64,000 bases of DNA from Trichoplax adhaerens (GCF_000150275.1 NW_002060943.1:7882066-7946065); one strand, 5' to 3'. Shown: positions 10,150-58,900, numbered from the stretch's first letter. Made by a program: numbers and translations. Notes: generated by a model not told the origin, from the letters alone.

Positions 10150-10990
10150 AATTCAGTATTCTAGCATATTTTTTGCCAACATTCGCCTCTGTGCTAAAAA
10201 AAGTATCAATACATTGCATATTTTCTTCAGCATAGTACCAAATTAAAGATTATAGAGATTTTATTGTCCTGATCTCTTATAATTTAGCACTACAGCATCT
10301 TCGTTGACCAAAGTTCGTATTTGTACTAATGAAAAGTATCGATAGATCCTATTATTTCTTCGACATTAAAGCGTATAAAAGACTTCAAAAATTGATTACC
10401 GTCATAGAAACTTTATTGCATTAATCTCTTATAATTTAGCACTACAGCATCTTCTTTGCCCAAAGTTCTTCTGCATGCTAAGAAAAGTATGGATACATTT
10501 TTGTGTAATTTCTTTGACTTGAATCATAAAAGAGATTTAAGAAATTTTTATTACTGTCATAGAGATTCTATTGCTTTAATCTCTTATAATTTAGCACTAC
10601 AGAATCTTCGTTGTCCGAAATTCTTCTCTATGCTACAGAAAAGTCTCGATATATTGCATAAGTTCTTCAACTACAGTATGTACTATAATTAAAGATTTTA
10701 GAGATTTTATTACTCTTATTGAGATCTTATCGCGGTAATTTCTTATAATTTCATACTACAACATCTTCATTGCCCAAAGTTCATCTGTGTGCTAAAGAAA
10801 AGTATCGATAGATCGTATGATGTCTTCGAGTTTGTATCATATAGAAAACTTTCGAAATTGATCAGTATCATAGAGATTTCATTGCTTTAATCTCTTCTAA
10901 TTGTAATTTAGCAATGCAGCACTTTTTTGCCCAAAGTTCGTCTCTGAAAGATTTCAGAAATTCATTACCGTCAGAGAGTTTATTGCATTA
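10150..10990. repeat. Diverged tandem repeat, unit 152-159 bp, about 5.5 copies
   Basis: The motif ATCTCTTATAATTTAGCACTACAGCATCTTC…CCAAAGTTC…GAAAAGTATCGATA recurs at 10272, 10424, 10579, 10738 and 10890. Confidence 0.9.
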
Positions 10991-15199: not shown

Positions 15200-16656
15200 C
15201 TAAAAATTGACCCAGCCTACACTCTCTGCAATGCCGCATACATTTTTTCCCATTTTTATATAAATATACCCATGATCGCCAAAATCTTCACCCCAGGAGT
15301 TTCTAACTATCCAGTATGGAACAGGTGCATCAAGTTTATAACCGACAACTTGCACAGCATGATTCAGTACTTTCCCATCGCAATGATGCTGTATGATTCC
15401 ACCGACGTAATCCCTCCAGCTAGTAGCATCTACGGCTATGGATAAAGGACCATTTTGATTTAGAGCGGCAATCATGCTACTTGATTCTTGGTAGATGAAA
15501 TTGCTAGTAGTAAACTTCTTTAAAATGATGCCTGTGTTGGTTGCATGCTTCACGCATTTGTCTCTTTTGCCTAAATACGGATTAGCTGATTCTGTTTCAA
15601 GGGGTACTCTATTCTTAGTTAGCCAGTTGCAGGCTAGGTAAAACGATCCTCCCCGACAACCACCATCCATATTATCACATGAAAGTAGCTGTTGAACACT
15701 AAGTTCTGTGAATGAATTTCCTAAGTATTGCGATAGAATACGTATTCCTTAAGATGCATCTTTAAACTGGTAAAGAAATGTTAAACTTTTAAGACTAGAA
15801 AATAAACTCAAATGAATAAGTTTTGAAATTTCTATTTTGTGCCACAACTTTCCTATTGCAATAATTCTATATTATCGATATAAGCTGGAACAACAACCAT
15901 GCTCTTCATTATACGTACGCATATTTGTAGCCATGCAAAATATAATCGTACGCGTATTTGTAGTCATGTAAAAATATAATCGTGCTGTACTATATAATCG
16001 AATTTACGGGCAACTAATGAAATTGACGTGTGTGCTCAAGTAAGTGAATTATATCCGTTTCAGAAACTTACTGACTCAGTAAATAAATTAGGAAATATGG
16101 GACTAAGTCATCTTAAATTTAGGAGCACAAGTTTATACTGTCAATAAAGTAGGCAATCCAAAGTACCATTCTTACCAGCTAATGCCCAGGCGCTTGCAAT
16201 TGTTTCGACTGTGCTGAAAGCCCAGCAGCATCCGCAGCGACCCTGATTCCTTACTGGGCCAACAATGTTACGCTTGTGTTCTCTCCAATCAAGGCTGGAG
16301 GGAAATTTAGCAGTAGACAGAGAGTGGTGTAGTTCAGAATTGACAATCTCTTGCGTAGGAACTTGTCGGTTGCCTAGTAGCTCTTTAAATTCTTCATCAG
16401 TCCAATCTGCGAATTTGTTGACGCCGTAAGTGGCACCATTGGCATTCGTTGAGGCGATACGACGAAAGTTTTTCTTGAAAGTCTGAAAGCGAAATTCATG
16501 TTCTTCCTTAGTAGTATAGTTTCTATTATAGTCTGTTATAAAACTTTTGAATCTTGCTAGGAGATCAGTAGGGCTGTGAACAGATTCAGACAAAACTAGG
16601 CTTGTAGAAATCAATATAAAAAGGGTCGCTTTTACAATAAAAACCTTGACGTCCAT
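15200..16656 (-). CDS. CTSO: Cathepsin O-like papain (C1A) cysteine protease, 2 exons (16656-16176, 15720-15200)
   Basis: Signal peptide [23 protein letters not shown]; ERFNIN- and GNFD-like propeptide motifs; [11 protein letters not shown] (catalytic Cys), NHAV (His) and YWIVRNSWG (Asn). [14 protein letters not shown] and [10 protein letters not shown] are cathepsin O-like. The GT-AG intron 16175-15721 joins in frame. Confidence 0.93.
15914..15983. repeat. 33-bp tandem duplication in the CTSO intron
   Basis: CGTACGCATATTTGTAGCCATGCAAAATATAAT is followed by CGTACGCGTATTTGTAGTCATGTAAAAATATAAT. Confidence 0.8.
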
Positions 16657-20796: not shown

Positions 20797-23700
20797 ATGG
20801 ATAAATCAACGCCTCTTCGCTCATTAAAATTGTCTCGATTCGGTCATTTATGGATTTTAATGTCATCTTTAGCAGCTGGTGGCTGTTGTGTTTCATTCTA
20901 TTTACCCTACTGGTTAATTGGCTATTGGAATAAAACTACAGTTACATTTGGCACTTTTCGTGCTTGTAATTACCCAGGAATGGTTTATAATAGGACTACC
21001 GCTGCCTTAGGCACAACAACAATTCATATTTGTGCCCGTTATAATGACTTCAATGATATCCCAAGTATAGCCTGGAAAGCTTGCACTATTATGCAGGGTG
21101 CTTCATGTGGTATCTTACTGTTAATCGCTTTAATTGGTCTGTCTTTCATGTGTATTAAGGACGTATTAACTAAGAAAGCAATTAGGGTAGCTGCCATTTT
21201 ACAACTTCTTGCAGGTCAGTCAAAAATGTAAGACAATGCTACCGGAAACACAATTACTGTTGTCCTTTCGACAACGATCGGAATATAAGGACGTATAGAT
21301 GGAATAGTTATTTTTATAATGGAGAATAGCATTTTTAACATTAGAATCAAGTAATACTTTAGTAAATTTGAATCCTCAGGAGTAAAATCGTTAGGATCCG
21401 CTACGGTATAGTATTTAAAATTTTACTTCTTAAAATTGATCAAAATCATGCTAGATGATGAGTGAGTTTTAAATTAGTACAGGCCTCAACGATGTCTCCA
21501 ATAATTAATTATAATACTATAAATAATGAATCACTATTATTCCTCGTCTCTCTTCCCGTCTACTGTCTCGGTGAAATTATAATCAGTAAAGATCTAATTT
21601 CACTGTGCTAGCATATATTTTCACCGATTATAATAATTATTATATTTCGTCAAGGTAATCTTAATATTAACGGAGTGATAACATAAAAATGATCATGACA
21701 GTAATTGGTGTTGAACCTTTTGTGAGTTTATTTGAAAAGAGAATGGATTGATTACATCACCAGCCTAGAGAAATTGCTAAGTTAATTGAATTTGTTGTTT
21801 TGAACAACATGATTGCTAGACATATTGCATAATACGTTATACTCTGTGAATCGATTATTCTATTGCTAATGGCTTTGAGTATTTGTCTTTCAAATTAGAG
21901 GGTCAGTGCTACGGAGCAAAACCAATTAAAATCTCTTTTATTCCTGTTCTGATATTGTCTCTCTCATCGATTATACTTTCACGACAGCGGCGACACTAAA
22001 ATTATCCGAAAATAGATTATGGCTTCAACAATTTCATAGATAATAAATAGCACTAAAATAGCTTAACATGCATCGCACGACATTTTTTTTACATATTTTA
22101 CCCTTGTCTTCTACCAGGGTAGTCCAGCGCTATGCTATTATTAAAGCATATTGTCTTCCGCTACATTAGAAAGATTTCCGATCTCCACTAAATTGTTAAA
22201 AGTTGTCCCAACAGTTAGATTGGGTCTATACATTAAAGCCTATTCTTGTTCCGCTTCCATTCTTTTACTAACTATTAACAATCCTCATTTATTAATTAAG
22301 TAGGTAGTTATATTATTCTTTTGTATTTGCGCTTTTGTTAACGTGTAACCGACATTTTGACTGTAATCAGTAGTTTTTCCGTTCTCTAGTTAATCAATCA
22401 CGCCATGATAATGCGCCTATACTATATTATGCGTTTATAGCAACAATTACTGTGCTGTGCTTAGCTGTATGTTTACGCTGAGCGAATTCATGTATCACTG
22501 TTTACTTTAATACGCATTACAGTATTTGTTGATAGTGAAGAAAAATGAACTTATTAGCAGCTCGATGTGAAGTAACATGTGGATTGTGAAAAATCTTTCC
22601 TTGCATTATTATCAACCCAAATTTTATCATTACCCCTTAACGCTGTCATGCAATTAGTTGCGAAGCCATAGTAAAACTATTTCTAATTTAAATTCATATT
22701 GGCATAGCCTTTAACTAAACTGTTTATTAGGATTCTATTAAAATTCATACGGGATTACTAGGATTATGCTCATGACTACGAATTTCGAATTTCTTGACTT
22801 CACGCTGCGGTGCGACATCAAGAGTAGTTATGAAAAAGTTTAATTTACAACAGTAACAAAGTTTCGATATAAGCTTGAAATGATATCTTTATGAAGGTTA
22901 ATCCATGGACTCAATTTATACCCACAGTATTATTAATTGTGATAGGATCAATTTTCTACCGTCGGTAATTTTTGATTGATACTCCATATTAAGAAAATTT
23001 AGGTACAATAGCAGTAAATGGAAGGTGGTAATCAAGGAAAAAACAATGACATTATACAGAAAGAGTTGCATTGTAAAAAAAGAATGATACATTTATGAAG
23101 AAGCGGGCAATTTTTTGGACACCCTTGGGTTAGGATGTAGAGTACTGTACTGATCTGATTCTATTTTCCTAGCTAAATGATCATATTTAATTTTGATCGT
23201 TTCAGTAAATATCAATACCGTAGTTCATAGATAGCCATTTATTACCCAGTTATGAGCAGTGTCTAATGGTCTATTAATGTACACTTCGAAATATATAATG
23301 AACCATCTCAGTACATACTGTTGTAGTATCGCCGTATTAGCACATAAGCCTAAGTTATGTGTAGTCATGCTCTCACTCGGCTGTACTCGTTAACCTAAGC
23401 TCTTTTCCATATCTTTCTATAATTTAACAACTCAAAAAGATATCATCCTCTATCAATCTCCAGTAATTGCAGCATGCAGGCAGTATAGCTCTGTATCCGG
23501 CTTTTTGAGCCTTTGTCGGATCGTCATCCGTTGTGATTACATTTAAATAAATAACTGGCTATCATATCCTAGTCGGTATGTGAGTTCGCGTCAGAACCAC
23601 AAATAGCTGTTATCATTTTTGAAACGCTATCATCATTGTCCTTTCATTATTCAGCATTGTCGAAGTCTTCTTTATAGCTGTTGAATAGCTTAAAATATTA

Positions 23701-40903: not shown

Positions 40904-41910
40904 ATGACTTCGGTGTCACTTGTAACTACATTTGCTCGAAGATTTTCTTCGACATCTCGCTTATTGCAGATTCAAGTTGGAGACAAATTACCATCAATAG
41001 CGTTACATCAAAATAGTCCTGGTAACAAGGTAGACATAAGGCAGCTATTTGCTAATAAGAAAGGAATATTATTTGCTGTACCTGGCGCTTTTACTCCAGG
41101 ATGTTCCAAGACCCATTTACCTGGTTATCTTCAACATTACGACAATTTTAAATCCAAAGGCATTGATGTTATTGCATGCGTGTCTGTCAATGATGCCTTT
41201 GTTGTGGATGCTTGGAGTAAAAGCAATAACGTAGATGATCGACTTGAAATGCTAGCTGATACATCTGCGCAATTTACCAAGTCTGTTGGACTCGATTTTG
41301 ATGCTACTCCAGTTTTAGGTAATAATCGTATACCTGGATATGCATTACTGTATGCTCTAGACCAGGGACGTGATAGGACTAGGCATAAAATACTATATAG
41401 CGTCCACGTATCTAGCTTTATCAAAGTTGATATTATCGCGTATAGTAAGTAGCAACTCTGCTCAATACGTTTACTTTTACTCTTTTTTAGTCTTATAGTA
41501 AAGAATCCTACTGCAATCTTAACTCTTTAAACATGAACCTCTATGACTGTACAGTACTGTACAGTGTACATTAGTGCTATGCATGTACCATTGTACCAGT
41601 CGGTTTAAAATTGAAGAAAATCAACGTAAATAAATAAAATTTAGGTAGATATTACTGTAAGAAGAAGAATCATAATTAAACCACTGGTAATTGTTATAAT
41701 TGTCAAAAAATAGAATGTTACAACTACAATTGAGCGAGAATTTTTTTAAATGTTTTAATTCATTTTACGTCATACGATATAGGCAACATTCGATCGAAAA
41801 GATATGCGATGATCATAGAAGACACAGTGGTAAAACAGATTAATGTTGAACCTGATGGCACGGGACTTAGTTGCAGTTTGGCTCAGAATATTTTAGAGCA
41901 ATTATCATAG
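40904..41910 (+). CDS. PRDX5: Peroxiredoxin 5 (atypical 2-Cys), 2 exons (40904-41318, 41783-41910)
   Basis: Arg/Ser-rich presequence-like N-terminus [21 protein letters not shown]; [17 protein letters not shown] (peroxidatic Cys); [10 protein letters not shown]. Exon 2 gives [14 protein letters not shown]…[14 protein letters not shown] (resolving Cys) and ends ILEQLS*. Confidence 0.96.
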
Positions 41911-43101: not shown

Positions 43102-43932
43102 TTATTCGTCTAAAAGAGAGTCTTGCGTCCATTGAGTAAATATTATCGGTGATGGAGGGTCTGTAACTTTTACAAAGTCATTGACGTCCTCATAATGCAA
43201 TTCAGATATCTGCAAATTGCTATCTCCAACAGGCGGCACTCGGGCACTGTCGGTAAAAATGTCTAAATTAATATCATTTTTGATAAACTCGACATCCTCT
43301 TCTCCACTGGGATAACTTGCCATAATATTTTTACTTTTATTGCAATTATCTGTAGAACTAAATCTGTCACTTGGAATATCGCTTTCGTTAGCAGTTAACT
43401 TATCATTATTTTTTAAAGTGGTCGAAGTTGCACTAGTATGCAAGCATTTGTTGATTTGATCCATGCTGCTATCCTCATCGTCATTACCTGGAAAAGTTGA
43501 TAAAATTACGCGCATATACTGTATAATTTTATGTTGATTCAATGAAGAAGAACTACTATTGTTACCTTCGTATGATCCATGAACAGGAAAGCTGTTCGAG
43601 GCATATTTAAAGAAGGAGGTTAACTTGGTCTGAGTAAGGCATGGTGTCGTAATTGGTTTGCCGCTGATTAGCAATTCGCTGTTAATATGGCGTCTAGTAT
43701 CAATAGGGTCTACACTATTTCTATCAGTATCAAGTTTTCGAAAGACCTGTCGATGAATCTGTGTCTGCTTTTTTCTTTTATTAACTTTTGGTGTATTTTG
43801 TGAATTCTTTTGCTTTTCACATGATAACCATTCTGTATTCTTGCAGTCATAGGGATAATTCTCTGACAACTTCGGGTGATAGAGTTCCAGATTTTGAAGA
43901 TTAAACTTTGATCCTAATTTGTTCACCGCCAT
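43102..43932 (-). CDS. Intronless 276-aa, largely disordered protein with a canonical PIP box; possibly AUNIP-like
   Basis: Uninterrupted 831-bp ORF from the ATG at 43932 (MAVNKL…) in AT-rich DNA, head-to-head with EIF4E2. Motifs: NKRKKQTQI, QTKLTSFF (43632-43609) and C-terminal IFTQWTQDS. Confidence 0.72.
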   Translation of the reverse strand: MAVNKLGSKFNLQNLELYHPKLSENYPYDCKNTEWLSCEKQKNSQNTPKVNKRKKQTQIHRQVFRKLDTDRNSVDPIDTRRHINSELLISGKPITTPCLTQTKLTSFFKYASNSFPVHGSYEGNNSSSSSLNQHKIIQYMRVILSTFPGNDDEDSSMDQINKCLHTSATSTTLKNNDKLTANESDIPSDRFSSTDNCNKSKNIMASYPSGEEDVEFIKNDINLDIFTDSARVPPVGDSNLQISELHYEDVNDFVKVTDPPSPIIFTQWTQDSLLDE

Positions 43933-47220: not shown

Positions 47221-49744
47221 TGACATCCGGTATACATAACCAGCACAGCAATGTTGCTATCAACAAGATTTGAGTTATTCTTCTCGGCGAAAATTTGTAC
47301 AATAATATGTAATTAATCTACGCATGTATTTGTTGTAATTGTCTGTAAATTATAATAATTTGACCTTTGTTGACTTAACAATACTATGCAATATTATGAA
47401 TCCGATTGTACAATGTGAGTGAAAAGTTTCTGTATGGTAGCTATTTACATAACTAGATCGAATAGGTTTTAAACTGATTAAATGTATATTTATTTATATA
47501 CCCAAGTGCAGGCTTTGATAGCAGCAAGTACAATAATATCTCTAAGGGTTGCTAGTAGATTTCTGAACAATTTCTATATACTTGTTCTGATTTACCACCA
47601 AGTAGCAGTACTGCCCATTGGTAAAAGTTACATAACTTTATTATGGTGTCTGCCTAGCAAGAATATTACAATGTAGAACATCACCTGTTAACATGAATAG
47701 CTGCAGGCATAGGCAGCCGTATGCCTGTCCATATACATAATTTATTCTAATTCATAGATTCACGTATTAGCATTGATCATATTTTTAATTTGCATGGGGT
47801 CATTGATTTCATGACATCTCGCAATTGATAATACCTTATTATTACAACACTATCATATCGTAACTCCTGATGTAGTGGCCTGTAAAAATTTGGCACTTGG
47901 CAGAATCCTACAGTATTCGCTGTCATAATAATCATTACAGATGATACGGGATACGATACTATTAAGCATACAGTAGCATTCAAGTGTAATCCTGACTTAA
48001 CAAACGATTTTGAAGGTTGAAGCATTTGCAATATAACGTGCAAATCTTAATTACAGCTAATTTATTCTGTTTTTCATAATATATATATAGCGAAAGATTC
48101 ATTAAGTATACTAATTGATAATTACACAATTTATGCTACACAATGCCCATGTGTACCACGCTCCTAGTCAATTCCTAATTATTTTATCACTATATTCCTA
48201 AAAATACTGTATATTCGCATTTCTGTACCCAGCAAAATGTATGAAATTATAACATTTCATATCAGAATACTCGCTCCAATCTCAGACCAGACCTCACATG
48301 TACAGGTGTACCTGTTGTACCTTATTCTCATAACACATGAAACAAAAACTTTGGTAGCAAGTAACACTGAGTGTAGTAGGAATAGTGCAATTTATTAAAG
48401 ATTATTCTGGCCGAAATCTTGAGGGCAACTAGAAACTTTAATGGTAGCTTCGTCATATCATGTATGAATTTTTTATTCGCTACTCAAAGATACAAGTGCT
48501 ACTGTATTTATTCTTTCTTATTTTTATATGCCATAATTAGTTTCGTGGAAGGAAATCCAATTATGAATGTTTGCACAAACCAAAACAGCTGCTGCCAAAA
48601 TGGCAATTCTTTTTTTCTGTAACGTTGAAGTGCATAGGTATACTGTTAGAACTGTCATCATAATTGTTAACTATGCAATATCTTTAACTAGGCAAAGAAA
48701 AAGTAGACTCTGTAATAATAGCAGAAGATACATAAGAATCAAAAATATGCATAGAATAGCAATTATTCCATCATGTTGCATGTTTATGAGTTTACTCCAT
48801 GACTAATGTGTGGTAAGTTAACCAGTTTTGGACTTGATCCTACTGGGTTACATACGTACACTTACGGTAAATATGTATTTCATCGATGGATTCAGATCTT
48901 AATTTAAGATATAACAAGTTACATACTACTGTACTACGTTGTTGCAATACAATACGCCACACTCAGGTCTAAGCCACAGGCTATAGTTCTACATGTACGC
49001 TATTACAGAATAATACTTTTAGTTCTATTCTTCCAAATCATCAAATAGGATACCGGTAGATCTTTTAATTTACATATTCAGTACACGACAGTTACATTAT
49101 GCTGTAACGTTAATGTATCTCGTAAGTTGCAGTATACTGCACTACGCTTGCATATACATATCATCGCATCACCTGTAAATGTTACATGATATAGCAGTAT
49201 ACAATAATAATATTAATAGGTATACCTGCTTAGATAAAAAGCATAGGTGGCTTCGAGTATATGTAACCCCACAGCTACCTTAAAACTTCAAGATAGAATA
49301 AAATATCAGCACATTCACGATCTCGGAGATATTATTATTTTGTGGTTCTAATAGCTCATACGCGATGCAACATATATATTTATTCACTTTAATGAGATCA
49401 CTGTAATTATGTAATTGCATCTAATTAATTAAATATTACTGTGCACCATCGCATTCCTAATCAAGGCTGATCACTCACTGTAACTATACGATACATGTAG
49501 TACGATAAATTGCATAAGTCCTATCCAGCAAATCCAGCTGGCATGTCGCTTAAATCTAGCATTTATAATTGTCGTAAAAGGTAACAGGTTGTCCGTACGG
49601 TCGAGTATAGATAATAAATGACGACTGAAAGTCTTCAGAAAGTACACACTATGGTAACTATGACATGCCGTACATTCGAATAGTAGCAAAGTGTATCTTG
49701 TAAAGGCTAGATACTCTTTTTTAAATTAGGCCTACAGTATATTG

Positions 49745-49894
49745 GTATATAGTTGCATACAAACTGGTAAATGAACTAGCAGTGATGTTGCGTTGATCAT
49801 TCTATTACTTACCCAGTATATTCGTATATAGTTGTATACAAACTGGTAAATGAACTAGCAGTGATATTGCGTTGATCATTCTATTACTTACCCA
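49745..49894. repeat. Tandem duplication, period 79 bp, two near-identical copies
   Basis: GTATATAGTTG(C/T)ATACAAACTGGTAAATGAACTAGCAGTGAT(G/A)TTGCGTTGATCATTCTATTACTTACCCA at 49745 and 49824. Confidence 0.93.
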
Positions 49895-50403
49895 ATATCT
49901 AATGAGGTGAGATAATTTTCCCTTAGTTTTATTAAAGGATCACCCAGCGGTCCAAGAGATTTATACGGAATCAAGTCAGGTCTGTAAGTTTCCATCTGTT
50001 TCGTTGGTTAACGGTAAGTAAATATATATAATTAATTCATGTACCGTAGATAGTGACTCATAGAATGCAATGATATACTGTACGTACTTTTTACAAATTA
50101 CGGATTATAATTTTATATAACGCAGTGCTGTATGACAACGAATACATACATAAAAAAATGAAAGCCCAAACACTATCGTGACCGTCCAAAACATCGACGG
50201 AAATCGAATATATCCCTGACTTGCGTCTCTTTTTGGTGCCATTTTTGGTTATGTACGGGTTTTTTTATCACTGGAAACGTTCAAATCACCAAGGTGTACT
50301 GTACGTACAATGTGCCGTAGGCCTGTCACGAGTCATGACTCGGTCTACAGTACAGTATGTGACTGACGGACTTGACTGATGGACTGCAGCACAGTATTTA
50401 TTC

Positions 50404-51317
50404 TAATATCCACGAGTAGGCATGGTGCTGCACAGGTACAGTAGATGTACAGGGTGTCTCATAAGTATTTCCCACTGTTTGAAATTATATCACATTATAA
50501 CTTCAAGTCCTTATTAGACAAATTTGGTATTATTTGATATGATATCATGACTTCATGAGGATATTAGTAATATCACGAGTAGGCATGGTGCTGCACAGGT
50601 ACAGTAGATGTAAATTTAGTAAATTACTGCAGTAATCCATGCATGTAGCCGGTGTAGTGTACAGTATCTAGTCGTAGGTATCTACTTCTGAGACAAATAG
50701 AAATCGCGGATATCATCATGAAATCATACCATATGATATCATGACTTCATGAAGATATTAGTAATATCACGAGTAGGCATGGTGCTGCACAGGTACAGTA
50801 GATGTAAATTTAGTAAATTACTGCAGTAATCCATGCATGTAGCCGGTATAGTGTACAGTATCCAGTCGTAGGTATCTACTTCTGAGACAAATAGAAATCG
50901 CGGATATCGTCATGAAATCATACCATATGATATCATGACTTCATGAAGATATTAGTAATATCACGAGTAGGCATGGTGCTGCACAGGTACAGTAAATGTA
51001 AATTTAGTAAATTACTGCAGTAATCCATGCATGTAGCCGGTATAGTGTACAGTATCTAGTCGTAGGTATCTACTTCTGAGACAAATAGAAATCGCGGATA
51101 TCATCATGAAATCATACCGTACGATATCATGACTTCATGAAGATATTAGTATAGATGTAAATTTAGTAAATTATTGCAGTACTGTAATCCATGCATGTAT
51201 CTAGTGTAGTGTATAGTATCTAATCGTAGGTATCTACTTTTGAGACAAATAGAAATCGCGGATATCATCATGAAATCATACCATACGATATCATGACCTG
51301 ATGAAGATATTAGTATA
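50404..51317. repeat. 194-bp tandem array: three near-identical full units plus partial or deleted flanking units
   Basis: CACGAGTAGGCATGGTGCTGCACAGGTACAGTA starts at 50411 (partial), 50574, 50768 and 50962. The last unit (51150-51317) lacks the first ~40 bp. Confidence 0.95.
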
Positions 51318-52439
51318 GTATAGTATTGTAGTTCGGTATGTATGATGAATAATGATCAACTTCAATCATTATGCTGTACACACAGTGTACACTGCACACT
51401 ACCGTATATTTATTTATCATCATCAACATCATTAATGTAATGTCATGACTAATGTAGTCTACTCCAAAATATGGAGGCCGATTATTTTACCGATCATTTG
51501 CATCGCAAGTCATGTCTGCAACGGTGCTGTCCGCATTTAAATTTTCTGTTATCATTTCATGGTACCGTATGAAATAGAATGGCTGAAAAAATGACAAGCT
51601 TTCACATTATTTCCCACTATGAGGCCCTCGCTTTCTTTCTTTATTACTGTAGTCCATTAGTCCTGGTACGGTATTGCAAAAACACGAAAACTAAATATTT
51701 ACAGGACAGGAGCTTGCGTGGCGAATTACGGTAGTATTGTAGTAGTACGCTACTTTATCATGTTTGCTAAAATAGATGAGTATACTGTGCTTACGGTTGC
51801 AATATTTATTTATAAAGTGACTGTAATACAAATCACGTCAAAACGCTATTCAAAAGTGATTTACTGTACTCGTTTTCATTTGCAACTCGCAAATTTGATG
51901 AGATTATAACATAGATGAAGAAATCATACTATTGACATGTGATTTACTCATTGTCACTGACAGCTCTCCAATCTGTTGCAGTGAGTTGTGCCTGCATACT
52001 ATCATCGTACTGTACTGCAGAATGCATCTTTGACTGTAATGGAGATACTTGAAAAGTTTAAACACCAGATCCTTAAATGTATTTATCCTCCTTCACTTGA
52101 CTGCATTGTTTGTTGTTAGAATAATAATAATTGTTATGCACTCCATTTGAAAAATATTGATCAGTACCAGTAGCTGCGATTGCGGCCATGAGAAATACTT
52201 TAGGATGGTTACTCTGCTTTTTGCACAATCAGGATTCCTCATGGCCACGTGTACTCGTACACTTATGGCTTGCAGTCTCGTTTGCACTAAGTCCAGGCCT
52301 GGTCTAAACTGGAAAATCGACATTTTCCTAACTGAAAGCAAGACCAGTGTTAAGGTCTCATAACTGACAAACAAGACCTGATTTGTTTTCACTATCATGC
52401 ACAACAGCTTTCAGACCTGTGCACATGGTCAGCTGAAAA

Positions 52440-52590
52440 GGCGTACGTCATGCGCGTACGAGACACAGCGAGAGCCGCGTGGTATATAATAACGTAGGCA
52501 ATGCATAGTTGAGCTCTAGACCTGTGCTTCTAATTCATCGGTGGAGAACGTTTCCTCGACCATTTTTTCTCATTGCAATTGGATTTTCTG
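52440..52590 (+). promoter_or_regulatory. TATA-box promoter and short non-coding first exon of the 462-aa gene
   Basis: CRE-like TACGTCA at 52444 in a CpG-rich patch, TATATAA at 52483-52489, donor CTG|GTAAGC at 52590/52591, and acceptor CTTCTATTCAAAG| at 52905, 11 nt before the ATG. Confidence 0.65.
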
Positions 52591-52916
52591 GTAAGCTCGA
52601 TTGCATTAGCCATCTTTCAATACATTACCTGGAAATGCAGTGAATTTCACAATTACGCTAGGATTACCGACGATTTGAATAATACAGTGCATCAACGTTA
52701 CTGCTACATTTCTGCATATTTTCTGCAGTGCGGACTGGTTGGTTTAGTCGCTGCGTATCTTCAAATGATACTAACCGAAAATGTTGCATAACTTAGCATT
52801 TGCTACAATGTATTTTTGCTAAGCATGAGTTTCAGTGTTTTCTATACTTAATAATTGCAATTGAATTCAGAAGAAGTAATTTTATTGTTGTACTTCTATT
52901 CAAAGAATTGGTAACG

Positions 52917-54305
52917 ATGCCTTATTCATCGCGCGACGGAGATCGCCCACAGTGGAACGGAAGAGATGTCGACAGAAGAAGCGATTATTCTAGAGAGGAT
53001 GATAGACCCCCTCGGTATAACAAATTTGCTTCAGAAAATCGCTTTAATGATCGAGACAATTTTCGCCCAAGGAGACCTGGTATGCCTTCCAATAATGGTA
53101 GACCTATGCGTGGTCGAAACGGCAACGATAGGCGATTTGATCCAAGAAGTCAGCGTGGTGGGCGCCGTCAAGACGGCAATGGCAGACCTCGGGATGCTCG
53201 GCCACGTGAATATTACGTCAACCGATTTGTCATTTTCTGCAATGCAGCTGATCCTGATGAGAAACTTAGCGTTATACCCTACGAAGGCAATCATAACGAA
53301 GTCTACGACAACCAAGACAAAGTCTACATTCATGAACCTGCATTTGATAGAAAGCTCAATTATGCTGATTTGATGGCTGCCCTTTCCTACTGTATGAAGC
53401 GCACGGTGCAAACTTACAAAGCCGACCGACATGGCGAGTTATTTTTCATTGCAAGATACGGGAAAATCTTTTACACCAATGTCAATCAAGATCGTGACCG
53501 TTCAAAATGGACCGTTGCATCATTTATGAACAGCGTCAACACGCACAATTGGCCATTCGCTCAGGAATTGGAAACTAAAAGTGAAGCGAACCAACCAGAT
53601 ATTAGGCATTCGTTTTATCCTGTTAATGAAAATGTTCAACCTTCCGACTTTGAACGGGCGCTAGAACGAAAGAAATTTCAGAAGATTGATACCACGGAAG
53701 AATACTATGTTAGCTACGTATTAGAGGACAAAGAACGCGATAAACGGCGCAACGTCTTTATCTGCTATGATCAACACTTGAAATTCAAACGTATTCGTGT
53801 TCCGACTATCAAATGGTGCGATATCGATATCAGTCGCGACGATAACGTCGACTTAAGAATTAGCTTCAGAAGTGAAAGAGTATTAGAAAGGCGAGATCTG
53901 AACATGGATGATCGACTGGTTCAATCGTTGAAAGAGATTCCTTTGATGGATTTGATTACTTTTGACAAGAAGAATAACCTACAGGTATTGCAAGATAGGG
54001 AGAATGTGCAGTTGGTTAGACACAAGATCACCCATGCTTACATCATAACTCGCGAATTTTGCCAAAGCCGAAATTTAGAACCCTTTTGGCATTATTTAAC
54101 GGTGAACTGTACTGAAGTTACAGAGTACTCGCGCTTGGATAAAAATATTGGAGCATTCAAAACGGTTGAATCGAAGTGTGAAATAACTGCGACGGTCGAT
54201 CATGTTGGTAAACTAAAGATTCATAAAGAAGATAAGCTTGCTGAAGTTGTGAAAGCAATGCTAAAATTTTGGGGGCAACAATTGCCAGCCACCTTTAAGA
54301 ATTAA
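52917..54305 (+). CDS. Uncharacterised 462-aa protein: R/G/D/N-rich disordered N-terminus plus a globular beta-rich domain (possible degenerate Cet1/CYTH tunnel fold); single coding exon
   Basis: Longest ORF in the window, visibly higher GC than its flanks, starting MPYSSRDGDRPQW at ATG 52917. The ORF-track extension 52800-52905 lies in the predicted 5'UTR intron. The fold assignment is inference from motif order. Confidence 0.88.
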   Translation: MPYSSRDGDRPQWNGRDVDRRSDYSREDDRPPRYNKFASENRFNDRDNFRPRRPGMPSNNGRPMRGRNGNDRRFDPRSQRGGRRQDGNGRPRDARPREYYVNRFVIFCNAADPDEKLSVIPYEGNHNEVYDNQDKVYIHEPAFDRKLNYADLMAALSYCMKRTVQTYKADRHGELFFIARYGKIFYTNVNQDRDRSKWTVASFMNSVNTHNWPFAQELETKSEANQPDIRHSFYPVNENVQPSDFERALERKKFQKIDTTEEYYVSYVLEDKERDKRRNVFICYDQHLKFKRIRVPTIKWCDIDISRDDNVDLRISFRSERVLERRDLNMDDRLVQSLKEIPLMDLITFDKKNNLQVLQDRENVQLVRHKITHAYIITREFCQSRNLEPFWHYLTVNCTEVTEYSRLDKNIGAFKTVESKCEITATVDHVGKLKIHKEDKLAEVVKAMLKFWGQQLPATFKN

Positions 54306-55063
54306 GACAACATCGAAATATCCAATTTTTTCCACTTCGTAGATGATCACTTTTACTTTATTCGTTTATGAATTGCTTACGCGGTCTTTGTCTGTTCCTG
54401 GTAATTCATTGATTACACGGGTCGTTTGTTGGTAGTTTCAAATATTATTTTAAGCCGTTCTTGATGTGGTAAATTTGGAGTATTTAATTTTTAAGAAGAT
54501 AGAAATGCGGTAACTGAACTAGCTTATAGGATACAATTTTTTGTTATCTGACTTCATTTCGGTTGGCTTATTTCGATAGTATTAAGTTTAGAATTGATGA
54601 ATGAATATGGCCTATTCAATACCCGTACATCTGTAGAGTTTCACATGTGCAGTCGAATATATCGACGTTTTAGTATGGTTGTGTTCCTTCGAGTTTCTGT
54701 GCGCCACTGCATTACAGTAGGTTATAGGGCTTATTGCATTTTGTACAAGTCATCAGTCCGGATGTAAAATTAAAAATAAAAAGTATCGTATATTGGAATG
54801 TCCATGTGATAGAGGAGTTACTATGCTCAAAAGGAAAGTTCTAATCATTACAGCAAAACAGGACTTCGTAAACGGAATTCACTGAAACCTGAAGATTGAG
54901 ATAGAGTACTAATAAATCAATCAGTGACTCAGCAGAACGTTTCAACTTGTCCCATGAAGAAAGTGCAAGTTGTGATGAGTAAAAAAGGGACTAGTGTTGT
55001 GCAGATTAACGCTAAAAACTTGCAACTGGCGTTTGTGCAAGTTGCTGGCTATGCCATATCTAC

Positions 55064-55658
55064 AAGTGTGCCAATGCCATACGTGTGCACAAGACATTTT
55101 TCAATTTTGAACGCAGACGCTAAAATGCAATTCCATCTAAAGAAAGTAATCCAAAGTTTATATACATGAAATCCGTCAATTTAGATCCTAAATTAACTTT
55201 ATAGGTCTATACGGATGATTAGCGTAAAATTTCATGGAATGAAAAGTAATTGACTGAAAGTGTGCCAATACCATACGTGTGCACAAGACATTTTTTCAAT
55301 TTTGAACGCAGACGCTAAAATGCAATTCCATCTAAAGAAAGTAATCCAAAGTTTATATACATGAAATCCGTCAATTTAGATCCTAAATTAACTTTATAGG
55401 TCTTCTATACGGATGATTAGCGTAAAATTTCATGGAATGAAAAGTAATTGACTGAAAGTGTGCCAATACCATACGTGTACACAAGACATTTTTTCAATTT
55501 TGAACGCAGACGCTAAAATGCAATTCCATCTAAAGAAAGTAATCCTAAGTTTATATACATGAAATCCGTCAATTTAGATCCTAAATTAAGTTTATAGGTC
55601 TGTCTATACAGATGATTAGCGTAAAATATCATGGAATGAAAAGTAATTGACTGAAAGT
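55064..55658. repeat. Tandem triplication, units 194, 198 and 199 bp, near-identical
   Basis: AAGTGTGCCAAT(G/A)CCATACGTGT(G/A)CACAAGACATTTT starts at 55064, 55258 and 55456. Units differ mainly by small indels near TTTATAGGTCT. Confidence 0.96.
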
Positions 55659-55998
55659 TGAAAATTTATTTTTGGTTTTCATATCCAGTACAGCATCAAC
55701 CATTGCGGTCTTCAACGGATACAGTATGGTACGGTACTGAGCGTCAGGGGGTCGGGTTGGGTCCATGTTGAATATTGAACGATACAAAGGCGTGTTGGTC
55801 TAAAGAGCGTTTACAGTTAGTATACTGTCCTGTACTATACCTTACAGCATAGAGTACAGTATGGATTGAACACAGTAATCTACCGCATCGATGTCATTCA
55901 CTAAATTACAATTCTCATCCAGAGCACTCTGGGCCTGTTTTAAAAGCTAGAAACTTGCTCCTTCGTTGTGGTTATATTATAGCATTAAAGTGAAAAGA

Positions 55999-58900
55999 AT
56001 GTCTGTACTAGCCGATGCTAACTGTGCAATTTGTCGGCGAAAGTTTGATTCTAACGAAAAAGCGTTTACATCAAGCGGTAAAGTGTATCACGAGCAATGT
56101 TTCATGTAAGTTGAGCACTATTCGATGGAGATAGCTCCGGTACTGGATATCATTAGCATACAACATAGTCATTTTTAGCCCTACCTGCAATACAACGAGT
56201 TACGGTAAAAGGATTGATGCAATGGCATAATTGCCACAACTCTAGTGCATCAATACAGAGGATAGAGCCGATAGGGATGATTTCGAAAATTATATTCTCT
56301 AGCTATTGATAGCTTTGAAACGTTTCAACAGCATGGAGTACAGTGCAATACGGCAATGGTTGTAAAAAAAATAGTTAATCAGTGCTATCGTACAATATAA
56401 ACTACTGTATAGATAATTTACATGCTCAGGCATGGAGCCTAGGATACAACAGATTCTTATTTATAAACTGGACTTGTTGAATATTTAGATGCTGCCAGTG
56501 CTTGCAACCCTTCCCCGACGGAATCTTCTTTGAAGTAAGTTATTATCTTTCTTCCATGTTGGACAGTCAAAAACGATCCTACCGTACAGTATGCACTAGG
56601 ATCTTGTCAACAGACTGTATATCGAATAAAACACTTAACAGCATGGTATTTTAACTTGTTTTCGATCTCCAATATGATTTATCCAACATGGGTACGAAAT
56701 ACAGCATGAAGGCAGAAAATACTGCGATTACGATTTCCGTATCCTTTTCGCTCCAGTATGTGGCGATTGTGGTAAGTAGATTTGTTGGCTAATCACTCTT
56801 TGCCTTTTCTACAGTTATTTTATCTCATAACACTACTATACATAATGTAACAAGCCTATATAGACTGTTTTATGGGTATAATTGTATCCTGTAACAACAC
56901 TGATTGTGCCAGTTCGAACATGGCATTCGTATAGCTATGCCAAATGTGCAGATAGTAAATACTGATAATACGTTTACCTATGATACTGTATTATACATGG
57001 AAACAACTACAGTACTGGATATGAAAGTTGAAGAAATGTCTAAACATATTGTACTACTATTCAGAATCCATAACGATTCCATCGGCTTCTTGATTGATTT
57101 AAACAACATTTCTGATAATATATAATCCTTATAGGAGAGTTTATTTCTGGACGTGTTATTAAAGCTTTATCTCGAAATTGGCATCCTCAATGTTTCCGTT
57201 GCGAGATATGTAAGACCTCATTAGCAGACAGTGGATTTGTCAAAAGTGGAAATAGGTTAGCTGGTAACTATGAAACGGCATTTACAATATCCACCTAGAT
57301 AGCAAGGACTACCTATCCCCTTTCTCTAACAATTGCATAAATTACGTGTAATAGAGCTTTATGTCGAAAGTGTAACGCCGAAGAAAAGCAAAGAAAGTTA
57401 AATATGACTATCTGTAAGGAATGCAAGTAGGTTCAATGTTAATATCAATCGCAATATCTAAATTACGGTATCAATTTTTTATTGCTAATCCACTATTTTA
57501 TTATTTCTATCATAGTGGCATTATCGAAGGAAGTGATTTTATAACCATTAATGGACAGAAGGCTCACATTTTTCATTTTGACTGCTATGTGTGCGGGTGA
57601 GCTTTTGAGTTAAACCGAATTAGTTTATCATATTTTAGCCAGAAGAACTGAATAACCAAAACAGTTTAATATTGCTAACGAATTTGGTATGGATACAGTG
57701 CAAAACACAGTTTTATGGATGTACTTCGAGGACGATATACTATATGCTTTAACTAGATTACTTATTAATAAGTATATCGTATTATTATTCTTTGTAAGAA
57801 AATAGGCCTATTCATTTACATTGACGTAGATCTCGTATCATTTACTATTTCCATTAAAACTACATATCAAAATTTTTAACATGATAAACTAAGTGTAAGT
57901 TTGAGTTCATTGAATAACTTCTCTTAATCAATAGGAAACCGCTAACATCTCATGGTTTTGAAAAAGATGGGAAAACATACTGTTTACGCTGTTACGACAA
58001 AATGGGAGTACCAATTTGTGCGGCTTGCAAGTATGTTGACTGTATTCTATCGTCATTTTTCAGTAACATTGTACGCACGCAAAGTTATGTACCATCATAA
58101 ACTCATTTGACCTACAGAATATTACTATACTGTAACTAAGATCAATTAAAATTTTTATTATCGTCTAGACGACCAATTACTGATGTACATATTGTTGCGG
58201 CATTGGGGAAGAGCTGGCATGCTGATGTAATTTAGCATTTGATAAATAATGTAAAATAACTTCCGTAAGTGGCACGAACGTCATTAAAGGATGCAATAAT
58301 TTCTTTCGTATTAAGCATTTCGCGTGTGCCAAATGTGAAAAGCCATTCCATGGGCGGCCACATTATGAACATAATGGATTAGCTTATTGCGAAACTCATT
58401 ATAATCAGGTGATCGATATCACATTTATTAGAATGATTATGAAAGTTAATTTCACAGAATATTTTGAATGTTAAAGTGAATCGTAAATAAGGTCATTAAT
58501 TCAGAATCTACAAATTTATGATAGTTATTTGGAGAAATATGCTTCTATTGCAACCAAGCCATAAAGTCTGACAGTATGTAATGTATACTAGAGTTTTCCA
58601 CAATGAGAGTTAATTATCCTTAATCTTATTGCATAAAGTACATACAGCATATCTATTTTTCGGGCGTTTATCTGTAATTCCTCATTAGTTGGCATCAAAT
58701 ATCGGCGACCTGATTTAGAGCTGCTGTAAATAATTATCTTTCTTATAGAAATGATACGAGCTTTTCGCAAACATTGGTGCGAAGATCACTTTCGGTGTAG
58801 TTCTTGCGGAAGTCAGTTAACGCTCAAGTCAGTATTTAATCTGTATCATGTTGTTGCAGATACTAATCTAATTTTCTAGAGAAGTTACAATTTAATATTT

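Follow-up and report, generated by a model that had tools for sequence, protein, structure and literature searches.

A stand-alone placozoan relative of the C-terminal domain of coral RdRP-nucleotidyltransferase proteins, with a predicted and probably inactive triphosphate-tunnel fold

Animals cap their mRNA with a cysteine-phosphatase triphosphatase (PMC2699512, accessible part), and Cet1-type RNA tunnels are described, in the accessible parts of two reports, as occurring only in fungi, protozoa and viruses (10.1101/2023.02.01.526499; PMC2699512). A preliminary description of a Trichoplax adhaerens locus nevertheless proposed that it encodes an RNA-handling protein in which an arginine-rich tail is joined to a degenerate tunnel of this kind. 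This raises the question of whether the protein has such a fold, whether it could act as an enzyme, and where it came from. We analysed a stretch of 64,000 nucleotides (the window), which is AT-rich, intron-rich animal sequence. A single open reading frame on the plus strand (52917-54305) encodes a protein of 462 aa (P0001) from an intronless CDS, and all 11 motifs quoted for it were found in the order given. The features of the transcript are as follows.

52444..52450, plus strand: CRE-like element, a pattern match only
52483..52489, plus strand: candidate TATA box (TATATAA), ~30 nt 5' of the farthest reach (~52514) of the spliced RNA contigs
52514..52590, plus strand: non-coding exon 1 of the 5' UTR, start approximate; splice joint 52589/52905 with a short side of 37-76 letters, in runs X12, X9 and X6
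52591..52905, plus strand: 5' UTR intron, GT..AG, 315 nt, from RNA-run contigs
52917..54305, plus strand: CDS of P0001, spanned by single RNA contigs 52905-54590 and 52905-54662; placozoan relatives are 76-78% identical
54306..54780, plus strand: 3' UTR with a putative 3' end; RNA contigs reach 54538-54662, and the AATAAA at 54775 is a candidate poly(A) signal

The 5' UTR intron was spliced in three of the four runs of the first set and in none of the four runs of the second, and the DNA-like runs X1 and X2 span it unspliced. Splicing of this intron in RNA runs, together with the intronless CDS, identifies the P0001 gene as a transcribed, spliced host gene, which is conserved in placozoans. 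The CDS had been called intronless, which is correct, but the gene itself has this intron in its 5' UTR. Contigs cannot show the true transcription start, and ~52514 is the position, 76 letters before the donor, that the longest spliced contig reaches; the TATATAA at 52483 fits this reach, in agreement with the TATA promoter proposed earlier. Eight polymorphisms were seen in the CDS (four silent, four missense, no stop and no frameshift), too few for a selection test.

The surroundings of the gene are ordinary. Upstream lies a spliced gene on the minus strand, with exons at 50150-50265, 49892-49995, 49226-49285 and up to 48616, so that the gap is ~2.3 kb and not the ~5 kb of gene-free sequence supposed before; the argument from an isolated locus falls with it. 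The downstream neighbour, a LIM-domain gene, starts ~1.6 kb past the P0001 stop. Tandem arrays do flank the gene (50537-51318 and 55064-55658), but they are mutually unrelated, and a third array is present at 10252-10902. We rejected the flanking arrays as mobile-element ends, as no sequence is common to both.

Where the protein came from was addressed through its relatives. The 90% cluster of P0001 includes a Trichoplax sp. H2 record that differs by one residue, which identifies the window as placozoan, and the close relatives are two proteins (76-78% identity) that we took to be from other placozoans. A phmmer search of 1.84 billion representatives (E<=0.001) gave five matches: one close relative, three remote relatives covering the full domain and one repeat protein (P0008, E 5e-4), which was dropped. 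The remote relatives, P0005 (9e-7), P0006 (4e-6) and the lancelet protein P0007 (4e-5), are ~20-27% identical to P0001, and P0007 is a 403-aa form of the P0001 domain. P0005 begins with half a KH-like stretch and may therefore be a fragment.

A metagenome scan with the family alignment confirmed three of 80 candidates, among them L001 and L002. Each of these is an open frame exceeding 2,050 aa, with a PH-like region, an RdRP (PF05183, E<1e-172), an MTPAP-like nucleotidyltransferase, a KH-like stretch and, at the C-terminus, the P0001 domain. The 2315-aa protein P0043 (CAH3112566.1) of the coral Pocillopora meandrina is a fusion with an added N-terminal DEAD/Helicase_C region, which we take to resemble the helicases of Dicer/RIG-I type. 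The fusion architecture is thus (DExD helicase)-eukaryotic RdRP-nucleotidyltransferase-KH-like-P0001 domain, over 2,000-2,300 aa, and the catalytic motifs of the RdRP (GGDLDGD) and the nucleotidyltransferase (GS..SDLDL) are intact in all three fusions. The KH-like stretch scores against KH_1 at an E of only 0.2-0.3, on the relatives P0021 and P0025.

Pairwise comparison of P0001 with the fusions gave weak matches (E 0.008 to 1.6e4). We therefore relied on a test profile made from the three placozoan cores, P0005 and P0007, which contains no RdRP-type sequence. This profile matched the C-termini of P0040 (E 7e-36), P0041 (E 1e-34) and P0043 (E 3e-17), and the best score among 306 shuffled or reversed controls was 3.9 bits. 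At the level of profile comparison, these matches establish the homology of P0001 with the 403-aa lancelet protein and with the C-terminal ~400 aa of the (helicase)-RdRP-nucleotidyltransferase-KH-like proteins. For the coral-type domain (P0043, L001 and L002) the profile E ranges from ~1e-17 to 1e-37. Overall identity across the 11 aligned sequences is ~20%, with 22 invariant columns. In Pfam, no family covers P0001 or the C-terminal domain of the fusions, P0001 giving sub-threshold matches only to DUF7390, DUF3408 and DUF4905; PADLOC recognised none of four proteins.

Fusion to the RdRP in coral-type proteins, together with the lancelet form, indicates that the P0001 domain family goes far back in animal evolution and is linked to RdRPs. 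A tree of the 11 sequences has long branches and a poorly supported backbone, and we draw no order of events from it. Of the two origins offered in the preliminary description, ancient with patchy retention fits these animal relatives, and the search for domain partners also lends weight to the suggested RNA-handling role, since the same domain is fused to an RdRP and a nucleotidyltransferase, with helicase and KH-like partners. The other origin, horizontal gain of a capping-enzyme gene of a giant virus or a protist that is now decaying or domesticated, could draw on the intronless CDS, on a GC3 of 0.41 where six neighbouring stretches have 0.27-0.38, and on the fold shared with NCLDV capping enzymes. 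Searches that reach close relatives best confirmed no relative among viral contigs (14 candidates) or, with a single-protein query, prokaryote genomes (57 candidates), and found none in phages. Given also the spliced 5' UTR, the intact reading frame, the placozoan identity and the lancelet and coral relatives, we consider horizontal gain very improbable indeed. A word-index search with alignment A3 was insensitive, because it returned only four known proteins and missed two of the alignment's own members.

Within the window, tblastn with the three RdRP fusions matched the P0001 frame only, with no similar helicase, RdRP or nucleotidyltransferase. P0001 thus differs from the fusions in having no fused or adjacent RdRP or nucleotidyltransferase in the window, and its Arg-rich tail occupies the place of their KH-like domain. 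The parts of the protein, with residue conservation given across the 11 aligned sequences and Cet1 counterparts in brackets, are listed below.

52917..53207, plus strand: low-complexity tail rich in Arg, Asp, Pro, Gly and Asn, aa 1-97, net charge +12
53208..53432, plus strand: family-specific N-terminal part, aa 98-172, with invariant P121, Y122, G124, D131 and H172; low model confidence
53436..53474, plus strand: proposed degenerate motif A strand ELFFIARYGKIFY; in the hand register E305 falls on F176, E307 on I178 and K309 on R180
53607..54302, plus strand: predicted CYTH/TTM barrel and C-terminal helix, aa 231-462, from the AlphaFold2 model and fold searches
53850..53876, plus strand: DLRISFRSE strand; D312 and R314 invariant in 11/11; E320 (~E433) is Glu in the three placozoans only
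54015..54041, plus strand: motif B strand VRHKITHAY; R368 (~R454) in 11/11, K370 (~K456) K/R in 9/11, T372 (~R458) basic in 0/11
54099..54134, plus strand: TVNCTEVTEYSR strand; E403, S405 and R406 invariant and family-specific
54174..54197, plus strand: degenerate motif C KCEITATV; E422 (~E492) invariant, with T424 (~E494) and T426 (~E496)

The tail is 72% R/G/D/N/P and 27% Arg. It contains only two RG dipeptides and one RGG, and is therefore an Arg/Asp/Pro-rich tail and not a classical RGG box; the compositional bias described earlier was borne out, but its RG character was not. We infer that aa 1-97 are disordered and bind RNA. The first strand motif, which had been placed at 53451, is present, but ELFFIARYGKIFY begins at 53436 and 53451 falls inside it. 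Five loose motif patterns, drawn up after the sequence had been seen, occurred in order in none of 20,000 shuffles.

We used structure prediction to determine whether the domain could form a tunnel. An AlphaFold2 model built on a 9-sequence alignment (pLDDT 63.5, pTM 0.62) is usable only from aa ~231-240 to 462. Confidence was low over residues 98-230, where the proposed motif A strand falls, and these residues lay outside the barrel, which is open in the model with its first strand unplaced. A single-sequence AlphaFold2 model of P0001 (pLDDT 32) was discarded. Foldseek against the PDB gave 13 matches at E<=0.001; the 11 listed were all Pct1 or RESC1/2, and Cet1 came next at 1.7e-3. Among viral structures, both matches at E<=0.001 were NCLDV capping enzymes. 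The TM-scores were only 0.2-0.3, a consequence of the open barrel and of the poorly modelled third of the structure.

VIA-align on the Foldseek matches ranked RESC2 first (Z 8.6, rmsd 5.5, 184 residues aligned), with TTM-superfamily proteins in 49 of 50 rows. An independent wide search gave RESC1 at Z 7.4 (rmsd 6.1, 187 aligned), Cet1 at 7.3 and Pct1 at 7.1; Z values of 7.3-7.4 are commonly reached also by models that have no clear match, and were equalled by two non-TTM KICSTOR-GATOR1 rows over 100-110 aligned residues. All 20 rows whose alignment exceeded 110 residues were TTM-superfamily proteins, to which we presume that Med18/20 and VTC belong. Mediator Med18/Med20 and thiamine triphosphatase are TTM-fold proteins known in animals. 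They have the superfamily fold predicted for P0001 (Z 5.6-6.7), but over a shorter aligned length than RESC and Cet1, with no sequence relation and with other partners.

In the ESM Atlas, aa 98-462 fell with PF02940/DUF7903 clusters (0.94, 195 shared features). The top look-alikes there were DUF7903 (PF25475) clusters, mainly of plants and partly co-annotated PF02940; P0001 had no Pfam match to DUF7903 at E<=10, and a search for papers on DUF7903 function found none. The L002 domain gave no usable Atlas match. For the lancelet relative the Atlas returned MACPF (0.91, 131 shared features), an identity that we rejected as weak, with few shared features. A homodimer prediction (two copies with GTP), made without an alignment, scored 0.00 and is evidence neither for nor against a dimer through a swapped hairpin, as in RESC1/2.

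Taken together, the model and fold searches suggest that aa ~231-462 of P0001 probably form a CYTH/TTM tunnel, an antiparallel tunnel with outer helices. Foldseek, VIA-align, the viral search and the ESM Atlas agree with the Cet1-like tunnel first proposed, and Pct1, RESC and Cet1 are the best matches, but the closed 8-strand tunnel was not built and the first strand stayed outside. Another long-stranded sheet or barrel, with motif likeness arising by chance, would account for the low TM-scores, the middling Z values tied with non-TTM proteins and the inconsistent Atlas votes. It would also account for the missing link at sequence level: a PDB sequence search with the protein and two profiles gave no TTM match at E<=10, and hhalign against E. 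coli YgiF was not significant (E 0.25-0.42), its best local pairing being YgiF motif C on KCEITATV. However, Cet1/RESC-type TTMs are the common outcome of Foldseek on two libraries, of VIA-align and of the Atlas, and the CYTH-like Pfam family of RESC1/2 (PF25477) matched the relative P0021, if weakly (E 0.15). In addition, R368 and E422, both kept in 11/11 sequences, fit the R454-E492 salt bridge that stabilises the Cet1 tunnel (PMC2699512, accessible part). A wrong fold call is therefore quite unlikely.

The active site was compared in a register set by hand over the 11 sequences, from Cet1 residue spacing (PMC2699512), the RESC preprint (10.1101/2023.02.01.526499), both as far as their accessible text goes, and E. 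coli YgiF. The position of E305 is Phe in the three placozoans, Arg in two sequences and Glu in the six RdRP-type ones. The positions of E307 and E494 are Glu in none of the 11, and that of E496 in two, both RdRP-type. P0001 has F176 and E320 where the fusions retain Glu (for E305) and carry Arg (for E433), respectively. In this register P0001 is without all four metal-binding glutamates (E305, E307, E494 and E496), most of which had been described as apparently lost. The putative assignment of motif A to ELFFIARYGKIFY is the weakest, because this strand lies outside the barrel of the model, and no alternative strand of P0001 offers an ExExK motif.

The motifs typical of Cet1 were likewise not found. 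The ExExK of motif A is replaced by F176/I178, and the sole ExExK/R match lies in a loop at 217; motif C reads E422-x-T424-x-T426, with no ExExE anywhere in P0001; and motif B has R368 and K370 but T372 at the position of R458. These results place P0001 outside the Cet1 enzymes and make it pseudo-enzyme-like. Loss of E305, E307 or E496 singly inactivates Cet1-type enzymes (10.1101/2023.02.01.526499, accessible part). With no canonical metal site discernible in the alignment, P0001 would probably lack Cet1-type hydrolysis.

An active but rearranged RNA 5'-triphosphatase or pyrophosphohydrolase, in which non-canonical acidic residues bind metal and 5'-ppp is stripped from RdRP products, has some residues in its favour: D131, D304, D312, E403 and E422 are invariant, the placozoans retain E320 (~E433, the general base), and the RdRP-type sequences keep the glutamates noted above. 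It would also explain why 5'-ppp secondary siRNAs are absent in Nematostella, according to the accessible part of PMC12768352. Against this, the E307 and E494 positions are without Glu in all 11 sequences, single losses inactivate Cet1-type enzymes as noted above, the placozoan protein has none of the four, and no barrel strand of P0001 carries ExExE or ExExK. We regard such an enzyme as unlikely.

The idea that the basic residues remain was upheld in part. R314 (~K427) is present in 11/11 sequences and R294 (~K409, a tentative pairing) is basic in 9/11, and with R368 and K370 they are among the tunnel basics that are kept; the R393 equivalent could not be placed in the hand register. However, the equivalent of R458, a gamma-phosphate ligand in Cet1, is non-basic in 11/11. 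Its loss speaks for an inert TTM scaffold for protein contacts, like RESC1 or Med18/Med20, that binds RNA through its Arg-rich tail or loops only. Med18/20 rank close in the fold searches, RESC1 is reported not to bind triphosphate (10.1101/2023.02.01.526499, accessible part), and the long Lys/Arg-rich loops of the RdRP-type relatives (19-24 K+R per 71-84 aa) could bind RNA. Yet invariance of R314, R368 and R406, and near-invariance of K370, at ~20% identity exceeds what a hollow scaffold needs, even if R368 may be purely structural, and we hold the scaffold to be unlikely.

The pseudo-enzyme reading has a precedent that the preliminary description did not name, the trypanosome proteins RESC1/RESC2 (GAP1/2; PDB 8cdp, 8fn6; PF25477), which are the best or tied-best fold match of P0001. 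Like the barrel predicted for P0001, their TTM barrel lacks metal glutamates and retains basic tunnel residues, and they act in a non-capping RNA pathway beside terminal transferases. As described in the accessible parts of the reports, RESC1/2 are without two of the three metal glutamates (10.1101/2023.02.01.526499), and the dead tunnel of RESC2 clamps the guide-RNA 5'-triphosphate (10.1101/2023.02.01.526499; PMC12936278). Identity to P0001 in structural alignments is 10-13%, however, and P0001 has no PF25477 match at E<=10. RESC1/2 form a kinetoplastid mitochondrial guide-RNA heterodimer, whereas the P0001 family is animal, encoded by a nuclear gene, and stand-alone or RdRP-fused; 5'-ppp binding is demonstrated for RESC2 and proposed for P0001. 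Cet1/Pct1 and the NCLDV RNA 5'-triphosphatases (PF02940) share with P0001 the predicted tunnel fold, the strand order and an insertion after the motif A glycine. P0001 keeps the equivalents of R454-E492, K427 and K456 and lacks those of the four glutamates and R458. No guanylyltransferase partner was seen.

Where a dead, basic tunnel closes an RdRP-nucleotidyltransferase chain, the simplest reading is a clamp for 5'-ppp ends. We tentatively propose that P0001 is such a clamp, catalytically dead and RESC2-like, for the 5'-triphosphate ends of uncapped RNA, a reading that we favour but hold at somewhat below even chances. P0001 would be a stand-alone copy of the domain that ends the coral fusions. 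Its tunnel basics R180, R294, R314, R368 and K370, and possibly R406, would hold the triphosphate end as RESC2 does with residues of its K311/R402 type, and the Arg-rich tail, standing in for the KH-like domain, would add general RNA affinity; this part of the proposal has at best even chances. Direct RdRP products carry 5'-ppp (PMC6396948, accessible part). In the fusions, the clamp may grip the 5'-ppp end of the RNA that the RdRP makes or copies, while the nucleotidyltransferase adds a tail at the 3' end. The free placozoan form may serve RNA surveillance by shielding 5'-ppp RNAs, sorting them or passing them on.

A domain that instead binds inorganic polyphosphate or free NTP, with no connection to RNA ends, would equally have a basic tunnel, and the fold searches did return TTMs of the VTC and YgiF types. 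The top-ranking matches, though, are RNA-specific members, and the domain partners found (helicase, RdRP, nucleotidyltransferase and KH-like) are all RNA enzymes, which makes this very unlikely. Several points count against the 5'-ppp clamp as well. One main gamma-phosphate ligand, the R458 equivalent, is lost, and the RESC1 tunnel shows that such folds can be inert. According to the accessible parts of the reports, Nematostella shows no response to 5'-triphosphate on injected dsRNA (PMC8476169) and no 5'-ppp secondary siRNAs (PMC12768352), and lancelet RdRPs apparently do not act in RNAi (PMC6396948). As this evidence speaks against a role with siRNAs, the substrate may be long RNA instead.

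The same sources, in the parts accessible, report that Placozoa are without RIG-I-like receptors (PMC8476169) and piRNAs (PMC6085071) and have up to five Dicers (PMC4791657), and the RdRP survey in PMC6396948 included no placozoan. A broader scenario, which we rate as rather unlikely, is that early animals had a one-chain RNA-defence machine made of helicase, RdRP, terminal nucleotidyltransferase, KH-like domain and dead triphosphate tunnel. The tunnel would read 5'-ppp RNA ends as the RIG-I C-terminal domain does, with an unrelated fold, and placozoans would have kept the tunnel and an Arg-rich tail alone as a 5'-ppp RNA sensor.

Trypanosomes already provide dead TTM clamps for RNA ends, and the kind is therefore known. 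What appears new, from the sequence comparisons, is an animal family of pseudo-TTMs that in corals is fused to helicase-RdRP-nucleotidyltransferase proteins; among openly accessible articles and preprint texts, no paper describing the P0001 domain or the RdRP fusion was found. The P0001 family would be a Cet1-type RNA tunnel family in animals. Its fusion to the RdRP bears on the open question of animal RdRP function: cnidarians and lancelets retain intact RdRPs and show no amplified siRNAs, as far as the accessible parts of two studies go (PMC12768352; PMC6396948), and a meeting report, likewise accessible in part, states that viral load is disturbed when one Nematostella RdRP is knocked out (PMC12172373). 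If the 5'-ppp sensor reading were true, it would give a lead on what animal RdRPs do apart from siRNAs, the function still missing. The unannotated domain of 400 aa that ends the coral RdRP-nucleotidyltransferase proteins offers a concrete handle on the RdRP role, and the small stand-alone placozoan protein would be the easiest member of the family to express and solve.

In two metagenome sequences with open frames of more than 2,050 aa (L001 and L002), and in a 2315-aa protein of the coral Pocillopora meandrina (P0043), a eukaryotic RdRP shares one chain with a nucleotidyltransferase of MTPAP/TUTase-like type, followed by a KH-like stretch and then the tunnel domain, with P0043 carrying an additional DExD helicase at its N-terminus. 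The catalytic motifs of these fusions all look intact.

L001, 3-6179: RdRP fusion
L002, 3-6224: RdRP fusion

Many records of the coral-type fusion (P0027-P0039) are only 361-387 aa long and stop just past the start of the tunnel domain. These are probably gene-calling fragments broken at an intron; a natural form of the fusion that lacks the tunnel domain is a possible alternative.

On tblastn comparison, the match to the KH-like region of the fusions runs on into the Arg-rich tail of the target protein (window 53013-53207), which may reflect either an alignment extended by chance or the remnant of a KH domain that has decayed.

The following genes and coding stretches were found in the window.

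15200-16656 (-): papain-family cathepsin, exons
20797-21231 (+): LHFPL-family protein, exons
40904-41452 (+): peroxiredoxin (Redoxin), exons
43102-43932 (-): 276-aa frame, no Pfam match
48400-50265 (-): spliced gene for a small membrane protein, oriented divergently to the target
55913-58100 (+): multi-exon LIM-domain gene, presumably PINCH/LIMS-like

We take the small membrane-protein gene to resemble TMEM254; the single exon of it that was scanned gave no Pfam match, and a skipped-exon form (joint 49285/50150) was seen in one run.

Three mutually unrelated tandem arrays were also present.

10252-10902: 152-nt unit
50537-51318: 194/164-nt units
55064-55658: 198-nt unit

In DNA-like runs, the 194-nt array region was covered at 5-10 times the local depth and showed loose ends near 50446-50537, and the 194-nt unit is therefore likely to be repeated elsewhere in the genome.
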